From IMG/VR virus record IMGVR_UViG_2778261215_000003: a DNA stretch of 10,711 nucleotides, one strand, 5' to 3'. The notes beneath the pieces were generated by a model. It was not told where the DNA came from, did no database searches, and was given only the letters and a program-made list of their open reading frames with translations. Origin of the DNA: a virus (lineage: Duplodnaviria; Heunggongvirae; Uroviricota; Caudoviricetes). Below are positions 1 to 10,711 of this stretch, in pieces (the stretch's first letter is position 1; each line of letters starts with the position of its first letter). The position numbers were made by a program, and so were the translations under genes.

Positions 1-567
1 ATGCTTATTGGCTATGTACGCGTGTCAACAAATGACCAGAACACTGATTTGCAACGTAATGCACTGAACTGCGCGGGATGTGAGCGGATTTTTGAGGATA
101 AAATCAGTGGCACTAAGTCCGACAGACCAGGGCTGAAAAAACTGCTCAGGACACTATCGGCAGGAGACACGCTGGTTGTCTGGAAGCTGGACAGGTTGGG
201 GCGCAGTATGCGGCATCTTGTTACGCTGATAGAAGAGTTGCGTCAGCGAGGCGTGAATTTCCGAAGCCTGACTGACAGTATTGATACCAGCACCCCAATG
301 GGCCGTTTCTTTTTTCATGTCATGGGTGCCCTGGCTGAAATGGAACGCGAACTGATAGTTGAACGTACCAGGGCAGGGCTGGCTGCAGCTCGTGCCAAAG
401 GCAGAGTAGGTGGACGCCGTCCTAAGTTGACCACCGAACAGTGGGCACAGATTGGGCGTTTACTCGAGGCCGGAGAATCAAGACAGCGTATTGCACTAAT
501 TTTTGATGTGGGTGTTTCCACAATTTATAGAAAATTTCCGGCAAATAAGAGTAATGAATCCCCCTGA
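1..567 (+). CDS. Serine DNA invertase, Hin/Gin/Cin/Pin family
   Basis: 188-aa ORF with stop TGA at 565-567. N-terminus GYVRVSTNDQ carries the catalytic Ser at residue 10; conserved VVWKLDRLGRS and MGRFFFHVMGALAEMERELIVERT blocks; C-terminal helix-turn-helix (GVSTIYRKF). Close to Salmonella Hin and Mu Gin by recall. Confidence 0.9.
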   Translation: MLIGYVRVSTNDQNTDLQRNALNCAGCERIFEDKISGTKSDRPGLKKLLRTLSAGDTLVVWKLDRLGRSMRHLVTLIEELRQRGVNFRSLTDSIDTSTPMGRFFFHVMGALAEMERELIVERTRAGLAAARAKGRVGGRRPKLTTEQWAQIGRLLEAGESRQRIALIFDVGVSTIYRKFPANKSNESP

Positions 568-615
568 ATCAGCATTATTTTGATTATCCCTGCAAGTAGA
601 CAAATACCGTCATTT

Positions 616-633
616 TGTGTGAATAACGGCACA
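616..633 (+). promoter_or_regulatory. Candidate Ogr-dependent late promoter element (TGT-N12-ACA dyad) upstream of FI
   Basis: TGTGTGAATAACGGCACA: TGT at 616-618, 12-nt spacer, ACA at 631-633, about 85 nt upstream of the FI ATG. P2/186 late promoters carry such a dyad near -55 (established knowledge). No strong -35 nearby, as expected for activator-dependent promoters. Confidence 0.35.
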
Positions 634-709
634 ACTGCGCTTAGCTGTTTGTCAGGCACAATCACTTCAACATAGGGCGAAGCCTAATCCAATCAGGAGG
701 TTCGCCACT

Positions 710-1882
710 ATGGCTCAGGATTACCACCACGGGGTGCGCGTTGTTGAAGTCAACGAAGGCACCCGATCCATTACCACGGTGAGCACCGCCATCGTGGGCA
801 TGGTCTGCACGGGCGATGATGCCGATGCAAAAATGTTTCCTCTTAACAAACCTGTGCTGATCACTGATGTGCTGACTGCCAGCGGTAAAGCGGGTGAGTC
901 CGGCACGCTGGCCCGTTCGCTGGATGCCATCGCTGACCAGGCAAAACCCGTGACCGTTGTTGTGCGTGTGCCGCAGGGTGAAACGGAAGAAGAAACCACG
1001 ACCAATATCATCGGCGCAGTGACTGCTGAAGGTAAAAAAACAGGCATGAAAGCTCTGTTATCTGCCCAGTCACAGCTCGGCGTTAAACCGCGCATTCTCG
1101 GCGTGCCAGGCCACGATAACAAAGCCGTTGCGACTGAGTTGCTGAGCGTGGCGCAAAGCCTGCGTGGGTTTGCTTACCTGTCAGCGTATGGCTGCAAGAC
1201 GGTACAGGAGGCGATCACTTACCGTGAAAACTTCAGCCAGCGCGAAGGGATGCTGATCTGGCCTGACTTTACGGGCTGGGACACGGTGCTGAATGCCGAA
1301 GCAACGGCATATGCCACCGCCCGTGCGCTCGGTCTGCGCGCCAAAATTGATGAGCAGACCGGATGGCACAAAAGCCTGTCCAACGTGGGCGTGAACGGTG
1401 TCACCGGAATTTCTGCTGATGTGTTCTGGGATCTGCAGGACCCGGCAACCGATGCAGGTCTGCTTAACCAGAACGACGTTACCACGCTTATCCGCAAAGA
1501 CGGTTTCCGCTTCTGGGGTTCCCGCTGTCTGAGCGATGATCCGCTCTTTGCCTTCGAAAACTACACCCGAACCGCGCAGGTACTGACGGACACGATGGCA
1601 GAAGCGCACATGTGGGCGGTGGACAAACCGCTGAATCCGTCGCTGGCTCGCGACATTATCGAAGGTATCCGCGCCAAAATGCGCAGCCTGGTCAGTCAGG
1701 GGTATCTCATTGGTGGTGATTGCTGGCTGGACGAGTCGGTGAACGACAAAGACACTCTGAAAGCCGGGAAACTCACGATCGACTACGACTACACGCCAGT
1801 GCCGCCACTTGAAAACCTGATGCTGCGTCAGCGCATCACCGATCAGTACCTGGTGAATTTTGCCAGCCAGGTCAGCGCGTAA
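710..1882 (+). CDS. FI: Contractile tail sheath protein (P2 gpFI-like)
   Basis: 390-aa ORF with AGGAGG at 695-700, 9 nt before the ATG. N-terminus [19 protein letters not shown] and C-terminal [23 protein letters not shown] match the P2 FI sheath protein by recall; size matches. Confidence 0.93.
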
Positions 1883-1891
1883 GGGGACAAC

Positions 1892-2407
1892 ATGGCTTTA
1901 CCACGCAAATTAAAACATCTGAACCTGTTTAACGACGGGAACAACTGGCAGGGGATCGTTGAGTCGCTGACGCTGCCGAAATTCACCCGCAAATATGAGA
2001 AGTATCGCGGCGGCGGAATGCCGGGTGCAGTGGATGTGGATCTGGGGCTTGATGACAGTGCGCTGGACACAGAATTTTCCATTGGTGGTACTGAACTGCT
2101 GCTGTTTAAACAGATGGGCAAAGCCACGGTGGATGGCATCCAGTTGCGCTTCACCGGCTCTATCCAGCGTGACGATACCGGAGAAGTGCAGGCCGTGGAG
2201 CTTGTGGTGCGTGGACGTCACAAAGAAGTGGATTCCGGCGAGTGGAAGACGGGTGAAAGCAACACCACCAAAGTGACCAGTACCAACAGCTACGCGAAGC
2301 TGACTATCAATGGTGAGGTGCTCTATGAAGTGGACCTTATCAACATGGTGGAAATTGTGGACGGTGTGGACCTGATGGAAGCGCACCGCAACGCCCTCGG
2401 CCTCTGA
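1892..2407 (+). CDS. FII: Tail tube protein (P2 gpFII-like)
   Basis: 171-aa ORF starting 9 nt after the FI stop, with an AAGGGGA ribosome-binding site. Sequence MALPRKLKHLNLFNDGNNWQG matches P2 FII by recall; position and size fit. Confidence 0.92.
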   Translation: MALPRKLKHLNLFNDGNNWQGIVESLTLPKFTRKYEKYRGGGMPGAVDVDLGLDDSALDTEFSIGGTELLLFKQMGKATVDGIQLRFTGSIQRDDTGEVQAVELVVRGRHKEVDSGEWKTGESNTTKVTSTNSYAKLTINGEVLYEVDLINMVEIVDGVDLMEAHRNALGL

Positions 2408-2418
2408 TGTATCTGAAC

Positions 2419-2436
2419 GGCGCGGAATGCCGCGCC
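2419..2436 (+). other. GC-rich stem-loop in the FII-E intergenic region
   Basis: GGCGCGG (2419-2425) pairs perfectly with CCGCGCC (2430-2436) around a 4-nt loop AATG. No U-run follows, so it is not a canonical intrinsic terminator; it may be an mRNA stability or attenuation element. Confidence 0.3.
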
Positions 2437-2461
2437 AGAACCCAATTTACAGGACAGCAAA

Positions 2462-2764
2462 ATGAGCGATAAGCAGACTGAAAAGACTATTCAACTGGAT
2501 ACTCCCATCAAGCGCGGAAAAACGGAAATCACCGAAATTATGCTGCGTAAACCGCAGTCCGGTGCGCTGCGCGGTACACGCCTGCAGGCCATTATGGATA
2601 TGGATGTGAACGCGATGATGACCGTGATCCCCCGCATCTCCAGCCCGGCACTGACTGCACAGGAAATTGCAGAGATGGACCCGGCAGATCTCACCGCCAT
2701 GTCGGTTGAGGTTGTCACTTTTTTGTTGAAGAAGTCGGTGCTTGCCGGTTTACCGACAGCCTGA
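2462..2764 (+). CDS. E: Tail assembly chaperone (P2 gpE-like)
   Basis: 100-aa ORF between the tail tube and tape measure genes, the conserved position of the tail chaperone; contains the slippery heptamer near its 3' end. Confidence 0.85.
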   Translation: MSDKQTEKTIQLDTPIKRGKTEITEIMLRKPQSGALRGTRLQAIMDMDVNAMMTVIPRISSPALTAQEIAEMDPADLTAMSVEVVTFLLKKSVLAGLPTA

Positions 2765-2898
2765 CGGTTGACGATCTGGTGGCAGATATCGCCACCATTT
2801 TTCACTGGCCGCCATCCGTTACTGACGTTATGCCGCTGACCGAAGTGCTGGAATGGCGGTATAAAGCGATTCAGAGAAGCGGGGCCAACGATGAGTGA
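2462..2898 (+). CDS. E+E': Tail assembly chaperone frameshift product gpE+E' (programmed -1 frameshift at 2719-2725)
   Basis: After the T6G slippery run, the -1 frame is open for 57 sense codons from 2725 to TGA at 2896-2898, overlapping the T start at 2891. Predicted fusion about 145 aa. This mirrors the conserved G/GT and E/E' arrangement of long-tailed phages. Confidence 0.75.
2719..2725 (+). other. Slippery heptamer T TTT TTG (translational recoding site)
   Basis: TTTTTTG read in the E frame as A-CT TTT TTG; it is the same heptamer used by P2 E/E' by recall. Confidence 0.75.
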
Positions 2899-5800
2899 TA
2901 ATAACCTGCGCCTGCAGGTCATTCTTAATGCGGTTGACAAACTCACCCGCCCATTCCGTGCTGCACAGGCCAGTTCGAAAGAGCTGGCTGGCGCAATCAG
3001 AAACTCCCGTGACGCATTAAAGCAACTCAATCAGGCGGGTAACAGCCTGGAAAAATTTCGCAAGCTGCAGGCCGATAACAAGAAGTTAGGCGACAGGCTG
3101 AACTATGCCAGACAGAAGGCTAATTTGCTTAGCTCTGAGCTGGAGTCGATGGAACAACCATCACAACGGCACCTTGTGGCTTTAGGTCGGCAAACGCTGG
3201 CAGTCCAACGCCTGGAAGAACAACAAAAATATTTGCAGAAGCAAACGGCGCTTGTGCGTGCAGAACTGTACCGGGCGGGAATTTCTGCGAAAGATGATGC
3301 GGGAGCAACTGCCCGTTTAGCCCGTGAAACATCACGTTATAACCAGGAACTGTCGAAACAGGAGGCGCGGCTGAAGCGACTGGGGGAAGCTCAGCGCAGG
3401 ATGAATGCGGCGCGTGCCAGTTATGCCCGTTCACTGGAAGTGCGTGATCGTATTGCAGGTGCCGGAGCCACCACCACGGCTGCAGGGCTGGCAATGGGGA
3501 CGCCAGTGATGGCGGCAGTAAAAAGCTATACCAGCATGGAAGATGCCATGAAAGGTGTGGCAAAGCAGGTCAATGGTCTGCGTGACGATAATGGCAACCG
3601 TACTGCACGTTTTTATGAAATGCAGGATGCCATCAAAGCTGCCAGCGAACAGTTTCCGATGGAAAACGGTGCGGTGGACTTCGCTGCACTGGTTGAAGGT
3701 GGTGCGCGTATGAACGTTGCAAACCCTGACGACAGCTGGGAAGACCAGAAACGTGACCTGCTGGCCTTCGCCAGCACGGCGGCAAAGGCGGCAACAGCCT
3801 TTGAGCTGCCAGCGGATGAACTGTCAGAAAGTCTGGGGAAAATCGCCCAGCTCTACAAAATACCTACCCGCAATATTGAACATCTCGGTGACGCGCTGAA
3901 CTATCTGGATGATAACGCCATGTCGAAAGGGGCGGACATCATTGATGTCATGCAACGCCTGGGCGGTGTGGCTGACCGTCTGGATTATCGTAAAGCGGCG
4001 GCGCTGGGTTCCACCTTCCTGACACTGGGTGCTGCGCCGGAGGTTGCAGCCAGTGCAGCAAACGCGATGGTGCGTGAATTGTCCATTGCCACCATGCAAA
4101 GCAAGAGTTTCTTTGAAGGGATGAATCTGCTGAAACTCAATCCTGAAGTGATTGAAAAGCAGATGACGAAGGATGCTATGGGAACCATCCAGCGTGTGCT
4201 GGAGAAGGTGAATGCACTGCCGCAGGATAAGCGCCTGTCTGCCATGACCATGTTGTTTGGTAAAGAGTTTGGCGATGACGCAGCGAAACTGGCAAACAAC
4301 CTGCCGGAACTGCAGCGCCAGTTAAAACTGACAGCGGGCAATGATGCGCTCGGCTCCATGCAGAAAGAATCCGACATTAACAAGGATTCACTTTCTGCGC
4401 AGTGGTTGCTGGTCAAAACCACTGCACAGAATACCTTCAGCAGCCTGGGCGAAACGCTGCGCCAGCCGCTGATGGATATTCTGTACACGGTGAAAAGCGT
4501 TACGGGAGCGTTGCGTCGCTGGGTGGAAGCTAACCCGGAACTGACGGGCACACTGATGAAAGTAGCCGCTATTGTGGCTGCGGTTACCGTAGGCCTCGGC
4601 ACCTTGGCTGTGGCGCTGGCTGCAGTGCTGGGGCCGCTGGCAGTGATCCGTCTGGGGTTCTCTGTGCTGGGTATCAAAACGTTACCTTCCGTTACGGCAG
4701 CAGTAACACGAACCAGCAGCGTGTTGTCCTGGCTGGCTGGCGCACCACTGGCACTGCTGCGACGCGGGCTTGCTTCATCGGGCAACGCAGCGGGTTTACT
4801 TACTGCGCCGTTGTCGTCTTTGCGTCGCACGGCATCACTGACGGGAAATGTCCTGAAAACTGTAGCTGGTGCGCCGGTTGCACTGTTCCGGTCTGGATTA
4901 TCCGGTTTACGTGCTGTTGCTGTGATGTTTATGAATCCACTGGCAGCACTACGCGGCGGGCTGGCTGCCGCAGGCGCGGTGCTGCGAGTGCTGGCATCCG
5001 GCCCGCTGGCGATGCTGCGCGTTGCTCTGTATGCCATATCTGGTCTGTTAGGTGCTCTGCTCAGTCCGATAGGTCTTGTGGTTACTGCACTGGCAGGCGT
5101 GGCGCTGGTTGTCTGGAAATACTGGCAACCCATCACCGCATTTCTCGGTGGCGTGGTGGAGGGATTCAAAGCGGCGGCAGGTCCCATCAGTGCTGCATTC
5201 GAACCACTTAAGCCTGTGTTCCAGTGGATTGGCGACAAAGTGCAGGCGTTGTGGGGCTGGTTTACTGATCTGCTGACGCCCGTTAAGTCGACCTCTGCTG
5301 AACTGCAGAGCGCAGCGGCAATGGGGCGACGATTCGGGGAGGCACTGGCGGAAGGGCTGAATATGGTTATGCATCCGCTGGACTCCCTGAAATCTGGCGT
5401 TTCCTGGTTGCTGGATAAACTCGGCATTGTCAGTAAAGAGGCTGCAAAGGCGAAACTGCCGGAAAGCGTGACGCGTCAGCAACCTGCGACGGTGAATGCA
5501 GACGGTAAAGTGATGATGCCATCGGGTGGTTTTCCGTCATGGGGATATGGCTTTGCGGGGATGTATGACAGCGGCGGCTATATCCCGCGCGGGCAGTTTG
5601 GCATCGTCGGTGAAAACGGGCCGGAAATTGTTAACGGCCCGGCAAATGTGACCAGCCGGAGAAATACAGCTGCACTGGCTGCCGTTGTTGCCGGAATGAT
5701 GGGCGTTGCTGCCGCGCCTGCAGAGCTTCCACCGTTGCACCCTTTGGCACTTCCCGCGAAAGGCGGCGAAGCGATGGTGAGTCGTGCAGCCACTGTGCCG

Positions 5801-5968
5801 CCCGTTCAACGGATTGAGGCACCGATGCAGATCATCATTCAGACGCAGCCAGGACAAAGTGCGCAGGATATTGCGCGGGAGGTGGCCCGCCAGCTTGATG
5901 AACGTGAACGCAGGCTGAAGGCAAAAGCCAGGAGTAACTACAGCGATCAGGGGGGATACGACGCATGA
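2891..5968 (+). CDS. T: Tail tape measure protein (P2 gpT-like)
   Basis: 1025-aa ORF. N-terminal part is coiled-coil-like (Q/R/K/E/L-rich), the centre is a hydrophobic Ala/Leu/Gly/Val-rich repeat block, and the C-terminal region carries GIVGENGPEIV, a motif typical of tape measures. Start ATG 2891 overlaps the E' stop. Confidence 0.92.
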   Translation: MSDNNLRLQVILNAVDKLTRPFRAAQASSKELAGAIRNSRDALKQLNQAGNSLEKFRKLQADNKKLGDRLNYARQKANLLSSELESMEQPSQRHLVALGRQTLAVQRLEEQQKYLQKQTALVRAELYRAGISAKDDAGATARLARETSRYNQELSKQEARLKRLGEAQRRMNAARASYARSLEVRDRIAGAGATTTAAGLAMGTPVMAAVKSYTSMEDAMKGVAKQVNGLRDDNGNRTARFYEMQDAIKAASEQFPMENGAVDFAALVEGGARMNVANPDDSWEDQKRDLLAFASTAAKAATAFELPADELSESLGKIAQLYKIPTRNIEHLGDALNYLDDNAMSKGADIIDVMQRLGGVADRLDYRKAAALGSTFLTLGAAPEVAASAANAMVRELSIATMQSKSFFEGMNLLKLNPEVIEKQMTKDAMGTIQRVLEKVNALPQDKRLSAMTMLFGKEFGDDAAKLANNLPELQRQLKLTAGNDALGSMQKESDINKDSLSAQWLLVKTTAQNTFSSLGETLRQPLMDILYTVKSVTGALRRWVEANPELTGTLMKVAAIVAAVTVGLGTLAVALAAVLGPLAVIRLGFSVLGIKTLPSVTAAVTRTSSVLSWLAGAPLALLRRGLASSGNAAGLLTAPLSSLRRTASLTGNVLKTVAGAPVALFRSGLSGLRAVAVMFMNPLAALRGGLAAAGAVLRVLASGPLAMLRVALYAISGLLGALLSPIGLVVTALAGVALVVWKYWQPITAFLGGVVEGFKAAAGPISAAFEPLKPVFQWIGDKVQALWGWFTDLLTPVKSTSAELQSAAAMGRRFGEALAEGLNMVMHPLDSLKSGVSWLLDKLGIVSKEAAKAKLPESVTRQQPATVNADGKVMMPSGGFPSWGYGFAGMYDSGGYIPRGQFGIVGENGPEIVNGPANVTSRRNTAALAAVVAGMMGVAAAPAELPPLHPLALPAKGGEAMVSRAATVPPVQRIEAPMQIIIQTQPGQSAQDIAREVARQLDERERRLKAKARSNYSDQGGYDA
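4741..5030 (+). repeat. Degenerate tandem repeat (5 copies, 63-66 nt / about 21 aa period) inside T
   Basis: Repeat units begin near 4745, 4808, 4874, 4937 and 5003 (CCACTGGCACTGCTGCGACGCGGGCTT and variants), encoding PLALLRRGL / PLSSLRRTA / PVALFRSGL / PLAALRGGL / PLAMLRVAL. Confidence 0.7.
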
Positions 5969-6450
5969 TGATGGTGTTGGGATTGTACGTGTTTATGCTG
6001 CGCACCGTGCCGTATCAGGAGCTGCAGTATCAACGCAGCTGGCGACATGCGGCAAACAGCCGGGTAAACCGACGTCCGTCCACGCAGTTTCTGGGACCGG
6101 ACAACGACATGCTGACGCTTTCCGGTGTTCTTATGCCGGAGATAACAGGTGGCAGGCTGTCGTTGCTGGTACTGGAGCAGATGGCAGAACAGGGGAAAGC
6201 ATGGCCCCTGATTGAAGGCAGCGGCACGATTTATGGCATGTATGTGATTGAGGGACTGAATCAGACTAAAACGGAGTTTTTCCGCGACGGTATGCCGCGC
6301 CGGATTGAGTTCACCCTGTCGCTCAAACGGGTGGATGAATCCCTGTCCGATATGTTCGGTGATCTCAGTGCGCAACTGAATAATCTGCAGGACACGGCAA
6401 CGTCTGCCTTAAGCGATATCAGTAAAACGGTGGGAGGGCTGCTGTCGTGA
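5965..6450 (+). CDS. U: Tail protein (P2 gpU-like)
   Basis: 161-aa ORF; ATG at 5965 overlaps the T stop (TGA 5966-5968); GGGGGA ribosome-binding site at 5951-5956; position and size fit P2 U. Confidence 0.88.
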   Translation: MMMVLGLYVFMLRTVPYQELQYQRSWRHAANSRVNRRPSTQFLGPDNDMLTLSGVLMPEITGGRLSLLVLEQMAEQGKAWPLIEGSGTIYGMYVIEGLNQTKTEFFRDGMPRRIEFTLSLKRVDESLSDMFGDLSAQLNNLQDTATSALSDISKTVGGLLS

Positions 6451-7547
6451 ATTTCAGCTCTGAACTGCTTAACAAAGGCAACAAAACTCCGGCATTCAGC
6501 ATCAGTATTGAGGGCAGGGATATCACCACTGTGCTGGATAACCGCCTGATGAGTCTGACGCTGACGGACAATCGGGGCTTTGAAGCGGACCAGCTTGATC
6601 TGGAGCTGGACGACGCCGATGGAAAAATAGCGCTGCCGCGCCGTGGTGCGGTCATTACGCTGGCGCTGGGCTGGAAGGGGCAGCCGCTTTTCCCGAAAGG
6701 GGCATTCACGGTGGATGAAATTGAACACACTGGCGCACCGGACCGCCTGACTATCCGGGCGCGAAGTGCTGATTTTCGGGAAACGCTGAATACCCGCCGT
6801 GAAAAGTCGTGGCACAAGACCACCGTTGGGGAAGTGGTAAAGGAAATAGCTGCGCGGCACAAACTGAAGATGGCACTGGGTAAAGACCTGTCTGATAAAC
6901 CCGTGGAGCATATAGACCAGACTAATGAGAGTGACGGCAGTTTTCTGATGCGGCTGGCGCGACAGTACGGTGCTATTGCGTCGGTGAAAAATGGCAATCT
7001 GTTATTCATCCGGCAGGGACAGGGTAAAAGCGCCAGCGGTAAACCACTACCGGTGATCACTATCACACGTAAGGACGGCGACAGTCACCGCTTTACCCTG
7101 GCGGATCGCGGAGCTTACACGGGTGTAATTGCCAGCTGGTTGCATACCCGCGAACCCGCGAAGAAAGAAAGCACCACGGTGAAGCGTAAGCGCAGGACTA
7201 AGAAGCAGAAGAAAGAGCCGGAAGCGAAGCAGGGCGATTACCTGGTGGGTACGGATGAAAACGTGCTGGTACTTAATCGCACTTATGCCAACCGGAGCAA
7301 CGCCGAACGAGCGGCGAAAATGCAGTGGGAACGCCTGCAACGCGGAGTTGCGTCATTCTCGCTACAACTGGCGGAAGGGCGGGCAGATCTCTACACGGAA
7401 ATGCCAGTGAAAGTCAGTGGCTTTAAACAGCCGATAGATGATGCGGAATGGACCATTACGACTCTGACGCATACCGTCAGCCCGGATAACGGTTTTACGA
7501 CCAGTCTGGAGCTTGAAGTGAGGATTGATGATTTCGAAATGGAATGA
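6447..7547 (+). CDS. D: Tail protein D (P2 gpD-like, late gene D)
   Basis: 366-aa ORF with a GTG start at 6447 overlapping the U stop (GTGA); position immediately before ogr and size match P2 D. Contains a Lys/Arg-rich low-complexity segment (aa 237-262, nt about 7155-7232). Confidence 0.88.
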   Translation: MNFSSELLNKGNKTPAFSISIEGRDITTVLDNRLMSLTLTDNRGFEADQLDLELDDADGKIALPRRGAVITLALGWKGQPLFPKGAFTVDEIEHTGAPDRLTIRARSADFRETLNTRREKSWHKTTVGEVVKEIAARHKLKMALGKDLSDKPVEHIDQTNESDGSFLMRLARQYGAIASVKNGNLLFIRQGQGKSASGKPLPVITITRKDGDSHRFTLADRGAYTGVIASWLHTREPAKKESTTVKRKRRTKKQKKEPEAKQGDYLVGTDENVLVLNRTYANRSNAERAAKMQWERLQRGVASFSLQLAEGRADLYTEMPVKVSGFKQPIDDAEWTITTLTHTVSPDNGFTTSLELEVRIDDFEME

Positions 7548-7573
7548 TTCTTCGCAATGGAGAACTTTTAAGT

Positions 7574-7600
7574 TTGCAAAATGGAATAATGCGGTATCAT
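7574..7600 (+). promoter_or_regulatory. Candidate sigma70-type promoter for ogr
   Basis: TTGCAA (7574-7579) and TATCAT (7595-7600) separated by a 15-nt spacer, about 40 nt upstream of the ogr ATG. The spacer is shorter than optimal, so this is weak. Confidence 0.25.
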
Positions 7601-7637
7601 TATTGTGAATTTAGCAAAAATGGGGAGAACTCGAAAA

Positions 7638-7856
7638 ATGATGATTTGCCCACTGTGTGGAAGTGCCGCCCATACTCGCAGCAGTTTTCAGGTATCTTCA
7701 TTGACCAAAGAGCGTTACAACCAGTGCCAGAACATTAACTGCAGCCATACTTTTGTTACCCATGAAACTTTTGTTCGTTCGATTGCAACGCCAAAAGAGT
7801 CAAATCCGGTTCAGCCGCATCCAATGAAATCAGGACAGGTGGCGCTCTCTCTTTGA
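7638..7856 (+). CDS. ogr: Ogr/Delta-family zinc-finger late transcription activator
   Basis: 72 aa from ATG 7638, with GGGGAGA ribosome-binding site at 7622-7628. Cys4 arrangement CPLC...CQNINC and the central KERYNQCQNINCSHTF block match P2 Ogr (72 aa) by recall. The upstream ATG at 7605 lacks a ribosome-binding site and would add a non-conserved extension. Confidence 0.9.
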   Translation: MMICPLCGSAAHTRSSFQVSSLTKERYNQCQNINCSHTFVTHETFVRSIATPKESNPVQPHPMKSGQVALSL

Positions 7857-7933
7857 CGCTGCCGCCATTTTGTCGCCATCGTTAAAAAACAGTGCTTCTA
7901 ACATCATGATTTTAAAAGGCATAAATTTCAGGC

Positions 7934-7979
7934 AACAAAAAACCCATCAACCTTGAACCGAAATGGCGGGGTTGATGGG
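7934..7979 (-). terminator. Putative rho-independent terminator, oriented for minus-strand transcripts (downstream of ybjL)
   Basis: 10-bp perfect stem CCCATCAACC (7943-7952) / GGTTGATGGG (7970-7979) with a 17-nt loop that can pair internally (CCG/CGG). On the minus strand the hairpin is followed by TTTTTTGTT (complement of 7934-7942). No U-run follows it on the + strand. Confidence 0.45.
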
Positions 7980-8091
7980 CTCCACAAAATGGGGACATCA
8001 AAGAAAAGCAGTGGCACTAATTAAGACTGATGCCCTGCGGAAAAGTTCTGCGGTTGTGCAAAAAAATTTCATTTTCAGGGCAACTTCAGTT

Positions 8092-9777
8092 TTATCCTAA
8101 TCCTGGCCATACCATGACGATGATTGTCCCTGCCAGCGTCAGCAGGACGTTGGCGATTGCGTAGGTGCCCGCGTAGCCCAGCGCAGGGATGTTACTGCGA
8201 GCTGTATCACTGATGATCTCCATTGCCGGCGCGCAGGTGCGTGCGCCCATCATTGCGCCGAACAACAGTGCGCGGTTCATTCGCAATACATAAGCACCGA
8301 ACAAGAAACAGATAACCACGGGCACAAGACTGACAATTAATCCGGCAATCAACATCTGACCGCCAATCGCGCCCAGGCCGTTATTAATACCGCTACCGGC
8401 GCTCAGACCAACGCCTGCCATAAACACCATCAAGCCGAACTCTTTCACCATGCTTAATGCACCTTGCGGAATGTAACCGAAGGTCGGGTGGTTAGCACGC
8501 ATAAAGCCCAGCATAATTCCGGCGAATAACAACCCGGCAGCGTTCCCCATGCCGAAACTGAATGTGCTGAACTGGAAGGTGATCATCCCGATCATCAGCC
8601 CAATAACAAAGAAGGCGCAAAATGCCAGCAGGTCAGTGACCTGGCTGTGAATCGAGATAAAGCCGATGCGATCGGCGATGGTTTTTACGCGACGGGCATC
8701 ACCGCTGACTTGTAAAACGTCACCTTTGTTAAGCACGACGTTGTCATCTATCGGCATCTCAATCTGGCTACGAATGACGCGGTTAAGGAAGCAACCGTGA
8801 TCGGTCAACTTCAGTTGTGCGAGACGTTTACCTACAGCGTTATGGTTTTTAACGACCACTTCTTCAGTGACGATACGCATGTCGAGAAGGTCACGATCGA
8901 AAACTTCTTTACCGTTACGGAAGCTGGGATCGAGTCGGGCATGGGCGTCGGGATAGCCTACCAACGCTATTTCATCGCCCATTTGTAGCACGGCATCACC
9001 GTCTGGATTTGCCAGAATCCCGTTACGTCGAATACGTTCAATGTAGCAGCCGGTTTGTCGATAAATACCCAGTTCACGCAGATTTTTGCCGTCGGTCCAG
9101 GCCACCAGCTCCGGGCCGACGCGATAGGCGCGGATCACCGGTAAATAAACCTTACGGTTGGCATCAGTGTCCAGGCCACGTTCGCGGGCGATTTGCTGGG
9201 CGCTGGTCTGTAAGTCCTGATGCTGCAATTTCGGCAAGTAACGCGCACCAACAATCAAACTCACCAGACCGATTAAATAGGTTAAGGCATACCCGAGGCT
9301 CAGATTATCCAGTGCCAGTGAGAGCTGCCTGCTTTCCATGCCGGAATGACGCAGTGTATCGCCAGCACCGACCAGAACCGGTGTCGACGTCATAGAGCCT
9401 GCTAACATACCGGCCGTCAGGCCAATATCCCAGCCAAACAGCTTACCTAACCCTAAGGCGATCACCAGCGCACTGCCAACCATCACCAGTGCTAACATTA
9501 GGTAATTTTTCCCATCGCGAAAAAAAATGGAAAAAAAGTTCGGTCCGGCTTCGACCCCGACGCAGAAAATAAACAGCATAAAGCCAAGATTAAGCGCATC
9601 GGTGTTAATGCTGAAATGTTGTTGGCCTAATAACAGCGATACGACTAAAACGCCAATGGAATTACCCAGTTGGATCGAACCAAGTCGTAACTTTCCGAGA
9701 CATAGCCCAAGCGCGAGGACCACAAATAATAACAGAATGTAATTCCCATTTAACAATTCGGCGACGTTTATATTCAC
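8092..9777 (-). CDS. ybjL: Putative transporter, YidE/YbjL (AspT-type duplicated) family
   Basis: 561-aa ORF, hydrophobic N- and C-terminal halves around a soluble central region; sequence and length match E. coli YbjL by recall. GTG start (complement of 9775-9777), TAA stop (complement of 8092-8094). Confidence 0.9.
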
Positions 9778-10046
9778 GGAGGCTAACTTCTTGTTTACTA
9801 GTAAGCTGTTGAAAGAAATGGTAATTTACGATAATGTTTTTTACCAGAATTCAGGGCGCAGATTCATTCAGCGCACCTAAACGATAGTAAAGTAACAATA
9901 TATTTTACTAGTGTAATCACATTAGGTATCAACGGCTATATGAATTGCGTTGGCCTATATTAGCATGGAATGCGAAGCGGCTTTATCTTACTGAACGCCA
10001 CACTGGCGAAAAATGTGTTCGATAGACGCAGTGTCAGGAGGAACGA

Positions 10047-10424
10047 GTGAAACATAAACAACGTTGGGCGGGGGCAATCTGCTGTTTTGTCCTCTTCATT
10101 GTGGTGTGCCTTTTTCTGGCGACGCACATGAAAGGCGCTTTTCGGGCTGCCGGGCATCCTGAAATCGGCTTGCTATTTTTCATTCTTCCTGGAGCAGTCG
10201 CCAGCTTCTTTTCACAGCGTAGAGAAGTCCTGAAACCTCTGTTTGGCGCAATGCTGGCGGCACCCTGTTCGATGCTCATTATGCGGCTGTTTTTTTCACC
10301 GACGCGCTCATTCTGGCAAGAGCTGGCATGGTTACTAAGCGCGGTGTTCTGGTGTGCGCTGGGGGCACTGTGTTTCTTATTTATCAGTAGTTTGTTTAAA
10401 CCACAGCACAGAAAAAATCAGTAA
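10047..10424 (+). CDS. ybjM: Small inner-membrane protein YbjM
   Basis: 125-aa hydrophobic ORF with a GTG start preceded by AGGAGG (10037-10042); sequence and its position between ybjL and grxA match the K-12 layout by recall. Confidence 0.85.
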   Translation: MKHKQRWAGAICCFVLFIVVCLFLATHMKGAFRAAGHPEIGLLFFILPGAVASFFSQRREVLKPLFGAMLAAPCSMLIMRLFFSPTRSFWQELAWLLSAVFWCALGALCFLFISSLFKPQHRKNQ

Positions 10425-10444
10425 AGCCCTCAACGCGAGGGCTT
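10412..10444 (-). terminator. Putative terminator hairpin between convergent ybjM and grxA
   Basis: 8-bp stem AAGCCCTC (10424-10431) / GAGGGCTT (10437-10444) with loop AACGC. On the minus strand it is followed after 6 nt by a T6 run (complement of 10412-10417). It overlaps the ybjM stop codon. Confidence 0.4.
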
Positions 10445-10453
10445 GTCAGACGA

Positions 10454-10711
10454 TCAGGCGTCCAGATTTTCTTTCACCCATGCAGCAAAATCGGTATAGC
10501 CGCCGATATGTTGCTGATCGACAAAAATCTGCGGCACGGTTTCTACGGGTTTACCTGCCTTTTGTTGTAGATCTTCTTTAGTGATCCCTTCCGCACGAAT
10601 ATCTACATACTGATACTGAAAATCATCGCGTTCATTGCTCAATTTCTCAGCCAGATCTTTTGCACGCACACAGTAAGGGCAACCCGAACGACCAAAAATA
10701 ACGGTTTGCAT
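10454..10711 (-). CDS. grxA: Glutaredoxin 1
   Basis: 85-aa ORF MQTVIFGRSGCPYCVRAK with the CPYC active site; matches E. coli GrxA in sequence and length by recall. Start ATG is the complement of 10709-10711 at the window edge; stop TGA is the complement of 10454-10456. Confidence 0.93.
   Translation of the reverse strand: MQTVIFGRSGCPYCVRAKDLAEKLSNERDDFQYQYVDIRAEGITKEDLQQKAGKPVETVPQIFVDQQHIGGYTDFAAWVKENLDA

Follow-up and report, generated by a model that had tools for sequence, protein, structure and literature searches.

A P2-like Escherichia coli prophage with a Pin-type DNA invertase and a probable host-range switch in its tail-fibre gene

The stretch of DNA analysed here, a window of 10,711 nt, opens with the gene of a serine DNA invertase that very probably drives a host-range switch of the Mu G, P1 C, and e14 P type in a P2-like prophage lying beside ybjL in E. 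coli. We directly observed the family of the gene, a pair of inverted crossover sites, alternative tail-fibre cassettes, both natural orientations of the segment with exchange of half-sites between them, and the position and sequence constraint of an enhancer-like element near the 5' end of the invertase gene. The switch is real and functional-looking. It is also of a well-known kind that has already been described at the P2 Z/fun position, and nothing about it is new here; the invertible fibre mechanism has been textbook material since Mu G and P1 C.

An uninterrupted open reading frame in the ORF list, with its ATG at the very first base of the window, runs to a stop codon and encodes a product of 188 aa. 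The protein matches the Pfam families Resolvase (PF00239, E = 2e-53, residues 3-135) and, with its C-terminal helix-turn-helix, HTH_7 (PF02796, E = 1e-15, residues 138-181). Its PHROG is phrog_125, annotated as 'DNA invertase' (E = 9e-101), and over residues 1-184 the protein matches structure 3UJ3, a crystal structure of Gin from Mu (E = 8e-93). A gapless alignment of residues 1-181 gives identities of 85% to Pin of e14, 77% to Cin of P1, and 74% to Gin of Mu, and the catalytic residue Ser9, whose codon occupies nt 25-27, is unchanged across all four proteins. Judged by these comparisons, the gene belongs to the small serine recombinases, within the DNA invertase (Din: Hin/Gin/Cin/Pin) subclass and nearest to Pin. 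The ORF, Pfam, PHROG, structure, and identity data all agree with a sequence-only reading of the window that had placed a Hin/Gin/Pin-type invertase right before the tail gene FI. A resolvase of the Tn3 or gamma-delta type, which would be marked by a res site of three directly repeated subsites, a transposase associated with it, and a lack of Fis-contact residues, was considered and rejected: resolvases matched with E values of 1e-28 to 1e-34, compared with 1e-92 for Gin, the neighbours of the gene are phage tail genes, and its sites are inverted rather than direct. A promoter scan of the 68-nt leader returned no convincing sigma-70 promoter for the invertase.

The genes 3' of the invertase follow the P2-type order FI, FII, E/E', tape-measure T, U, D, and an Ogr/Delta zinc-finger gene, with FI as the first gene of the tail operon, and the prophage genes are succeeded by the host genes ybjL, ybjM, and grxA. 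In the P2 record, fun(Z) occupies the slot just before the pF promoter and FI, which bears out the earlier comparison of the invertase slot with the Z/fun moron of P2. The ogr gene is the last gene of the prophage; its longest ORF starts from a GTG at 7605 (7605-7856, 83 aa), and most annotations put the start at 7638 (72 aa). The prophage-host junction must fall within 7857-8091, a stretch of 235 nt bounded by ogr and by the 3' end of ybjL. The three host genes are ~99.8-100% identical to complete E. coli genomes, compared with ~97-98% in the best complete genome for the prophage part (window 1-7900, against 7900-10,711 for the host part), where mismatches are evenly spread. Over the whole window, the best matches among complete E. 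coli genomes reach 97.8-98.5%, with all of the divergence in the prophage and almost none in the host genes. This pattern fits a mosaic P2-like lineage that is missing from the complete-genome set and present in draft assemblies.

Between the invertase and FI lies a TGT-N12-ACA motif (Table 1) whose centre is ~85 nt 5' of the FI ATG; the annotated activator site of P2 is ~83 nt 5' of FI. The window holds five matches to TGT-N12-ACA against 2.9 expected, an excess that is not significant on its own, and the P2 pF region aligns poorly with the spacer between the invertase and FI, the position of this motif being the sole agreement. We assign the motif, a candidate Ogr activator site, to the neighbouring tail operon and not to the switch.

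Because the window starts at the invertase ATG, a crossover site and fibre cassettes would lie outside it, and we sought them in contigs identical to the window. A look-up by the exact 1025-aa tape-measure protein led to contigs L013, L019, and L018 (Table 1); window position 1 corresponds to position 7111 in both L013 and L018. Complete E. coli genomes were rejected as a proxy for the upstream DNA because their prophage part is too divergent. The invertase protein was likewise discarded as a query for being too unspecific: 9692 blocks of a public assembly collection index exactly this 188-aa protein, and no locus that it returned was identical to the window.

Table 1. Contigs matching the window, and features of the window and of the DNA upstream of it (plain numbers are window positions; contig positions carry the name of the contig)
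Feature	Location	Strand	Details
Contig L013	GCA_014457655.1		0 mismatches to the window over 10,711 nt
Contig L019	GCA_040591595.1		0 mismatches to the window over 10,711 nt
Contig L018	GCA_051568335.1		1 mismatch to the window over 10,711 nt
Tail-fibre gene H	L013 4098-5657		
Orientation A	L013		H of 519 aa with Phage_tail_fib N-terminus and Collar-domain C-terminus; then a 202-aa Caudo_TAP chaperone
Orientation B	L018		H of 560 aa with glycine-rich C-terminus (Pfam Gly_rich_2, E = 7e-10); then a 56-aa ORF
56-aa ORF (MWARIEENKVEEITEINPEGRF...)	L018 5788-5958		After the glycine-rich end, inside the invertible segment
Left-hand 26-bp crossover site	L013 5134-5159, ~1.95 kb 5' of the window		TTCTCACATACC TT GGTTTGGGAGAA; inside H, at about codon 350
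Right-hand 26-bp crossover site	L013 7030-7055, 81 to 56 nt 5' of window position 1		TTCTCTCAAACC AA CGTTTAAGAAAA; core AA at L013 7042-7043
Serine DNA invertase gene, Pin/Din family	1-567	+	ORF, Pfam, PHROG, structure match, identity to Pin/Cin/Gin
Putative Fis-dependent recombinational enhancer	19-90		Homology to the P1 cin enhancer; low synonymous diversity
Fis-consensus site I (putative)	23-37		TGTCAACAAATGACC; 1 mismatch to GNNYRNNWNNYRNNC; centre at nt 30
Fis-consensus site II (putative)	71-85		GCGCGGGATGTGAGC; 0 mismatches to the consensus; centre at nt 78
TGT-N12-ACA motif	616-633	+	TGTGTGAATAACGGCACA; candidate Ogr activator site of late promoter pF
Tail sheath gene FI	710-1882	+	Pfam Phage_sheath_1, Phage_sheath_1C, Gp18_domIII_N

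Like hix, gix, cix, and pix, both crossover sites are built as 12+2+12, and their TT and AA cores are mutually inverted. The core of the right-hand site lies 68 nt from the invertase ATG. Related loci preserve the arrangement: a pix-like right-hand site is found at -81 to -56 in all 18 that have upstream DNA, and the partner site inside H in 17 of these 18. The sequence-only reading had predicted a crossover site before position 1 and proposed a search upstream for 26-bp inverted hix/gix-like sites and alternative fibre cassettes; the predicted site is present at -81 to -56 in the contigs identical to the window, and L013, L018, and L019 contain both the sites and the cassettes. A default inverted-repeat search of L013 and L018 did not detect the crossover sites, since the exact seed common to their arms is short; a comparison of the two orientations and a pattern search that allowed mismatches revealed them.

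The interval from 5146 to 7043 of L013 is the exact reverse complement of the same interval of L018, 1898 bp with 0 mismatches, and extending the match by a single base on either side breaks it. Outside the inverted interval, across ~21 kb of flanks, the two contigs show 1 difference in 5145 positions to the left and 5 in ~16,000 to the right. The perfect match of the inverted 1898 bp, taken together with these near-identical flanks, indicates that the event was recent. The inner half-sites differ at one position only, a G/A polymorphism at L013 5154 and 7035, and the two bases are swapped between L013 and L018. A swap of this kind is expected when strands are exchanged reciprocally at the central dinucleotide, and it narrows the crossover down to 8 bp containing the core. 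The phase-variable segment that had been postulated is thus seen in both orientations across separate assemblies. L019 matches the window without a mismatch yet has the orientation of L018, opposite to that of L013; because L013 and L019 both match perfectly and differ in orientation, the window sequence does not fix the orientation of the DNA upstream of it.

Several contigs start at the sites themselves. L019 starts 8 nt inside the left-hand site (L019 1-40), the metagenome scaffold L021 starts inside the right-hand site (CAAACCAACGTTT..., L021 1-20), and in other enterobacterial genera about twenty draft contigs start at or inside the equivalent site. Contig starts at or inside the invertase-proximal site (AAACCAACG...), among them those of L026, L033, L047, L055, and L059, come from Escherichia, Citrobacter, Cedecea, Kluyvera, Trabulsiella, Yokenella, and other genera. 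Contig breaks at the site are as expected if the reads hold both orientations, and the pattern suggests that assemblers routinely break at these switches. Judging from other isolates, the segment probably continues to flip in the source strain. A BLAST search for the junctions in complete genomes, intended as a count of orientations, gave 428 genomes against 9 and was set aside as uninformative, because the Collar cassette pairs with many different partners.

The part of H common to both orientations comprises residues 1 to ~349-350, and the junction peptide then reads ...LLTYLGL/GEGS... in orientation A and ...LLTYLGL/REGS... in orientation B (the slash marks the junction). Alternative C-terminal cassettes of H, which had been expected upstream, do exist there, two of them and each with its own downstream gene (Table 1). 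The glycine-rich cassette has no recognisable chaperone, and the 56-aa ORF that follows it has no match in Pfam, PHROGs, or NCBIfam; short ORFs of 65-67 aa that resemble it are called in L006, L012, and L018. The fibre of the glycine-rich orientation might be non-functional. It is also conceivable, if unlikely, that the glycine-rich end and the family-less ORF are a receptor-binding domain and its chaperone in a combination not described before. Other cassette pairs occur in close relatives, for example Gp53-like_C with Collar. Mu G(+)/G(-) and P1 C(+)/C(-) suggest by analogy that the two fibres would recognise different receptors and that the host range would change with the orientation. Within the invertible segment of a related prophage in E. 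coli KO11FL / W, we observed an IS element with HTH_Tnp_1 and rve ORFs (L011 7449-8893), which in the W lineage moves the crossover sites further apart, to ~2.9 kb.

The remaining component of such a switch, a Fis-dependent recombinational enhancer, had been expected at nt 30-110 of the invertase coding sequence. The 5' coding part does contain an element with two Fis-consensus sites, and its position is nt 19-90 instead. We placed it by means of the P1 GenBank record, which annotates nt 19-90 of cin as 'enhancer of Cin-mediated C-segment inversion', and a 15-bp Fis consensus; nt 1-150 of the window align with cin, gin, and pin without gaps. Aligning the 5' nucleotides and scoring Fis sites, as the sequence-only reading had advised, yielded consensus cores at nt 23-37 (1 mismatch) and nt 71-85 (0 mismatches) in the window gene, cin, gin, and pin alike. 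The centres of the two sites are 48 bp apart, and site I is ~98 bp from the core of the right-hand crossover site; in the native hin arrangement, ~100 bp separate the core from the proximal Fis site (PMC3798978).

We compared this region across 75 unique invertase genes from a genome scan, which are phylogenetically related. Site II is perfect in 72 of the 75, site I has exactly one mismatch in 74, and the 48-bp spacing of the cores is kept in 72-74. The consensus is degenerate, and among background 15-mers from nt 121-540, 0.25% match it perfectly and ~2.7% with at most one mismatch. Normalised synonymous codon entropy, calculated over 24 codons at a time, is lowest, among the stretches tested, at codons 7-30, at 0.59 versus 0.87 for codons 31-180 (Mann-Whitney p = 7e-4, in genes that share phylogenetic descent). 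Third-codon positions 27, 30, 33, and 36, in site I, are 88-99% conserved, and positions 75 and 81, in site II, are conserved at 95% and 88%, whereas third positions in the 33 nt between the cores are variable (0.35-0.67). These data support an enhancer-like element at about nt 19-90 with two putative Fis sites, although part of the synonymous constraint at the 5' end could come from translation initiation. The protein itself also carries the residues that are uniquely conserved in Fis/enhancer-dependent invertases, which in Hin are K47/R48/K51 and Q151/R154/L155 (PMC3798978). The helix B residues (Hin K47, K/R48, K/R51) are present as K46/K47/R50 and those of helix 1 of the DNA-binding domain (Hin Q151/R154/L155) as Q150/R153/L154; Hin numbers equal window numbers plus one, an offset that we checked against the Hin DNA-binding-domain chain 1HCR. 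Inversion would be expected to depend on Fis.

In the mechanism that we propose, invertase dimers would bind the two inverted 26-bp sites, one at about codon 350 of H and the other 56-81 nt 5' of the invertase ATG, and Fis of the host, occupying the two sites within nt 19-90 whose spacing is 48 bp, would assemble the invertasome. The enzyme would then cut at the central 2-bp core and rotate the strands, so that the 1.9-kb segment flips. Each flip would join the constant N-terminus of H (349-350 residues) to one of two receptor-binding ends, either the Collar end (H of 519 aa plus the 202-aa Caudo_TAP protein) or the glycine-rich end (H of 560 aa plus the 56-aa ORF), and induced virions would carry one fibre type or the other.

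An invertase at this position could instead be an orphan, a leftover or a moron in the P2 Z/fun hotspot of a prophage that has no invertible fibre segment. The orphan state is real in relatives: in E. coli CT29 (L002) and four other complete genomes, nothing but the outer half-site CGTTTAAGAAAA remains and H lacks a partner site, which leaves the invertase orphaned. For the prophage studied here, we give this explanation scarcely any credence, as L013, L018, and L019 all have both sites and both cassettes, in two orientations, and both sites occur in 17 of the 18 loci with upstream DNA. The two orientations might also be assembly artefacts, or ancient rearrangements that have become fixed, with a switch that is no longer active. 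They do come from separate assemblies and not from the reads of one culture, and short-read assemblers can misjoin at repeats; however, the inverted repeats are just 26 bp long, much shorter than reads, and the breakpoints coincide precisely with the 2-bp core, the half-site polymorphism being reciprocally exchanged. Also against this explanation are 1898 bp free of mismatches between near-identical flanks, an invertase gene that is intact, an exact protein found in 9692 collection blocks, and homologous loci that flip in culture (PMC4272514). We therefore consider an artefactual or frozen arrangement very improbable.

A further alternative concerns the enhancer alone. The conservation of nt 19-90 could arise entirely from protein-coding and translation-start constraint, with no enhancer in the gene and an enzyme that acts independently of Fis. 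The peptide encoded there, VRVSTNDQNTDLQRNALNCAGCERIF, contains the catalytic serine and is nearly invariant, gene 5' ends are often synonymously constrained, and the Fis consensus is weak. Coding constraint by itself does not sit well with the distribution of the conserved positions, since synonymous conservation peaks inside the Fis-like cores (nt 27, 30, 33, 36, 75, and 81) and the positions between them vary, nor with a 48-bp core spacing that is kept in 72-74 of 75 genes. In cin, moreover, the homologous stretch is annotated as a functional enhancer, and the protein retains the residues in contact with Fis and the enhancer. On balance, we think it improbable that coding and translation-start constraint explain the element in full.

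The CT29-type loci show a replacement of their own. In CT29, a GT9 gene stands in place of the segment (L002 7748-8945, ~1250 to 56 nt 5' of the equivalent of window position 1). This heptosyltransferase-like glycosyltransferase gene is on the minus strand and low in GC (34-36%), and in CT29 and the four other complete genomes the replacement stops exactly at the 2-bp crossover core. Invertase-mediated recombination with a pseudo-site elsewhere would fit such an end point. A speculative proposal, that the crossover core also acts as a capture point for foreign cargo and, separately, that the glycine-rich end and its 56-aa ORF are an undescribed pairing, strikes us as unlikely.

For annotation, the switch means that the 'tail fibre' recorded for a prophage of this type depends on the orientation caught in the assembly, and that minus-strand 'gp53-like' or 'Collar' ORFs beside the invertase are not genes in their own right but alternative 3' ends of H that are silent. 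Breaks at these sites are frequent in draft assemblies. Host-range prediction and the engineering of P2-like phages or tailocins should count both cassettes as receptor-binding options.

Among known systems, the P segment of e14, a cryptic prophage of E. coli K-12, resembles the present one in its invertase (Pin, 85% identical), in the pix site next to pin (TTCTCCCAAACCAACGTTTATGAAAA, 1-2 positions off the right-hand site and ~80 nt 5' of the ATG), and in its layout of fibre gene, TAP gene, inverted TAP gene, inverted fibre 3' end, and invertase. The e14 segment flips in culture (PMC4272514). Unlike the prophage described here, which has a P2-type late region with FI after the invertase, e14 is a defective lambdoid element with mcrA in that place, and its cassette contents differ from the Collar and glycine-rich ends found here. 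The G segment of Mu likewise has the order Sc-Sv-U / U'-Sv' followed by an invertase (Gin, 74% identical) that reads away from the segment; the distance from the segment boundary to gin is 67 nt, compared with 68 nt from core to ATG here, and gin has Fis-like cores at the same positions, nt 23-37 and 71-85. The differences are that the G segment is ~3 kb long as opposed to 1.9 kb, that gix departs from the sites here at 9 of 26 positions, and that Mu is a Muvirus whereas this prophage belongs with the Peduoviridae. In P1, the invertase (Cin, 77% identical) has its enhancer at nt 19-90, a stretch that aligns without gaps to nt 19-90 of the window, but cin lies on the other side of the C segment and overlaps cixL with its 3' end, whereas the invertase gene described here has its 5' end towards the segment.

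The arrangement is shared by P2-like phages and prophages whose Z/fun hotspot contains an invertase. In the records of Escherichia phages 500465-1 and Cartapus, of Klebsiella phage KP12, and of the 'P2' prophage of O157:H43 T22, the annotated order is H, TAP, inverted cassettes, DNA invertase, and FI, and the invertase of KP12 is 99.5% identical to the one in the window. Goldberg et al. (2014) subjected clonal cultures of EPEC E2348/69 to paired-end sequencing and detected orientations that co-exist in two P2-like prophages (PMC4272514; Table S1). These two loci share the layout and the crossover site of the prophage described here, and their invertases are 80% and 83% identical to that of the window; one of the loci has the same TTCTCCCAAACCAACGTTTAAGAAAA site ~80 nt 5' of the ATG and FI directly after the invertase. 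A survey of P2 hotspots reported that the Z/fun hotspot often encodes a DNA invertase, with adjacent genes inverted (bioRxiv 10.1101/2024.10.15.618418). From these P2-like phages, the prophage described here differs only in its cassette pair.
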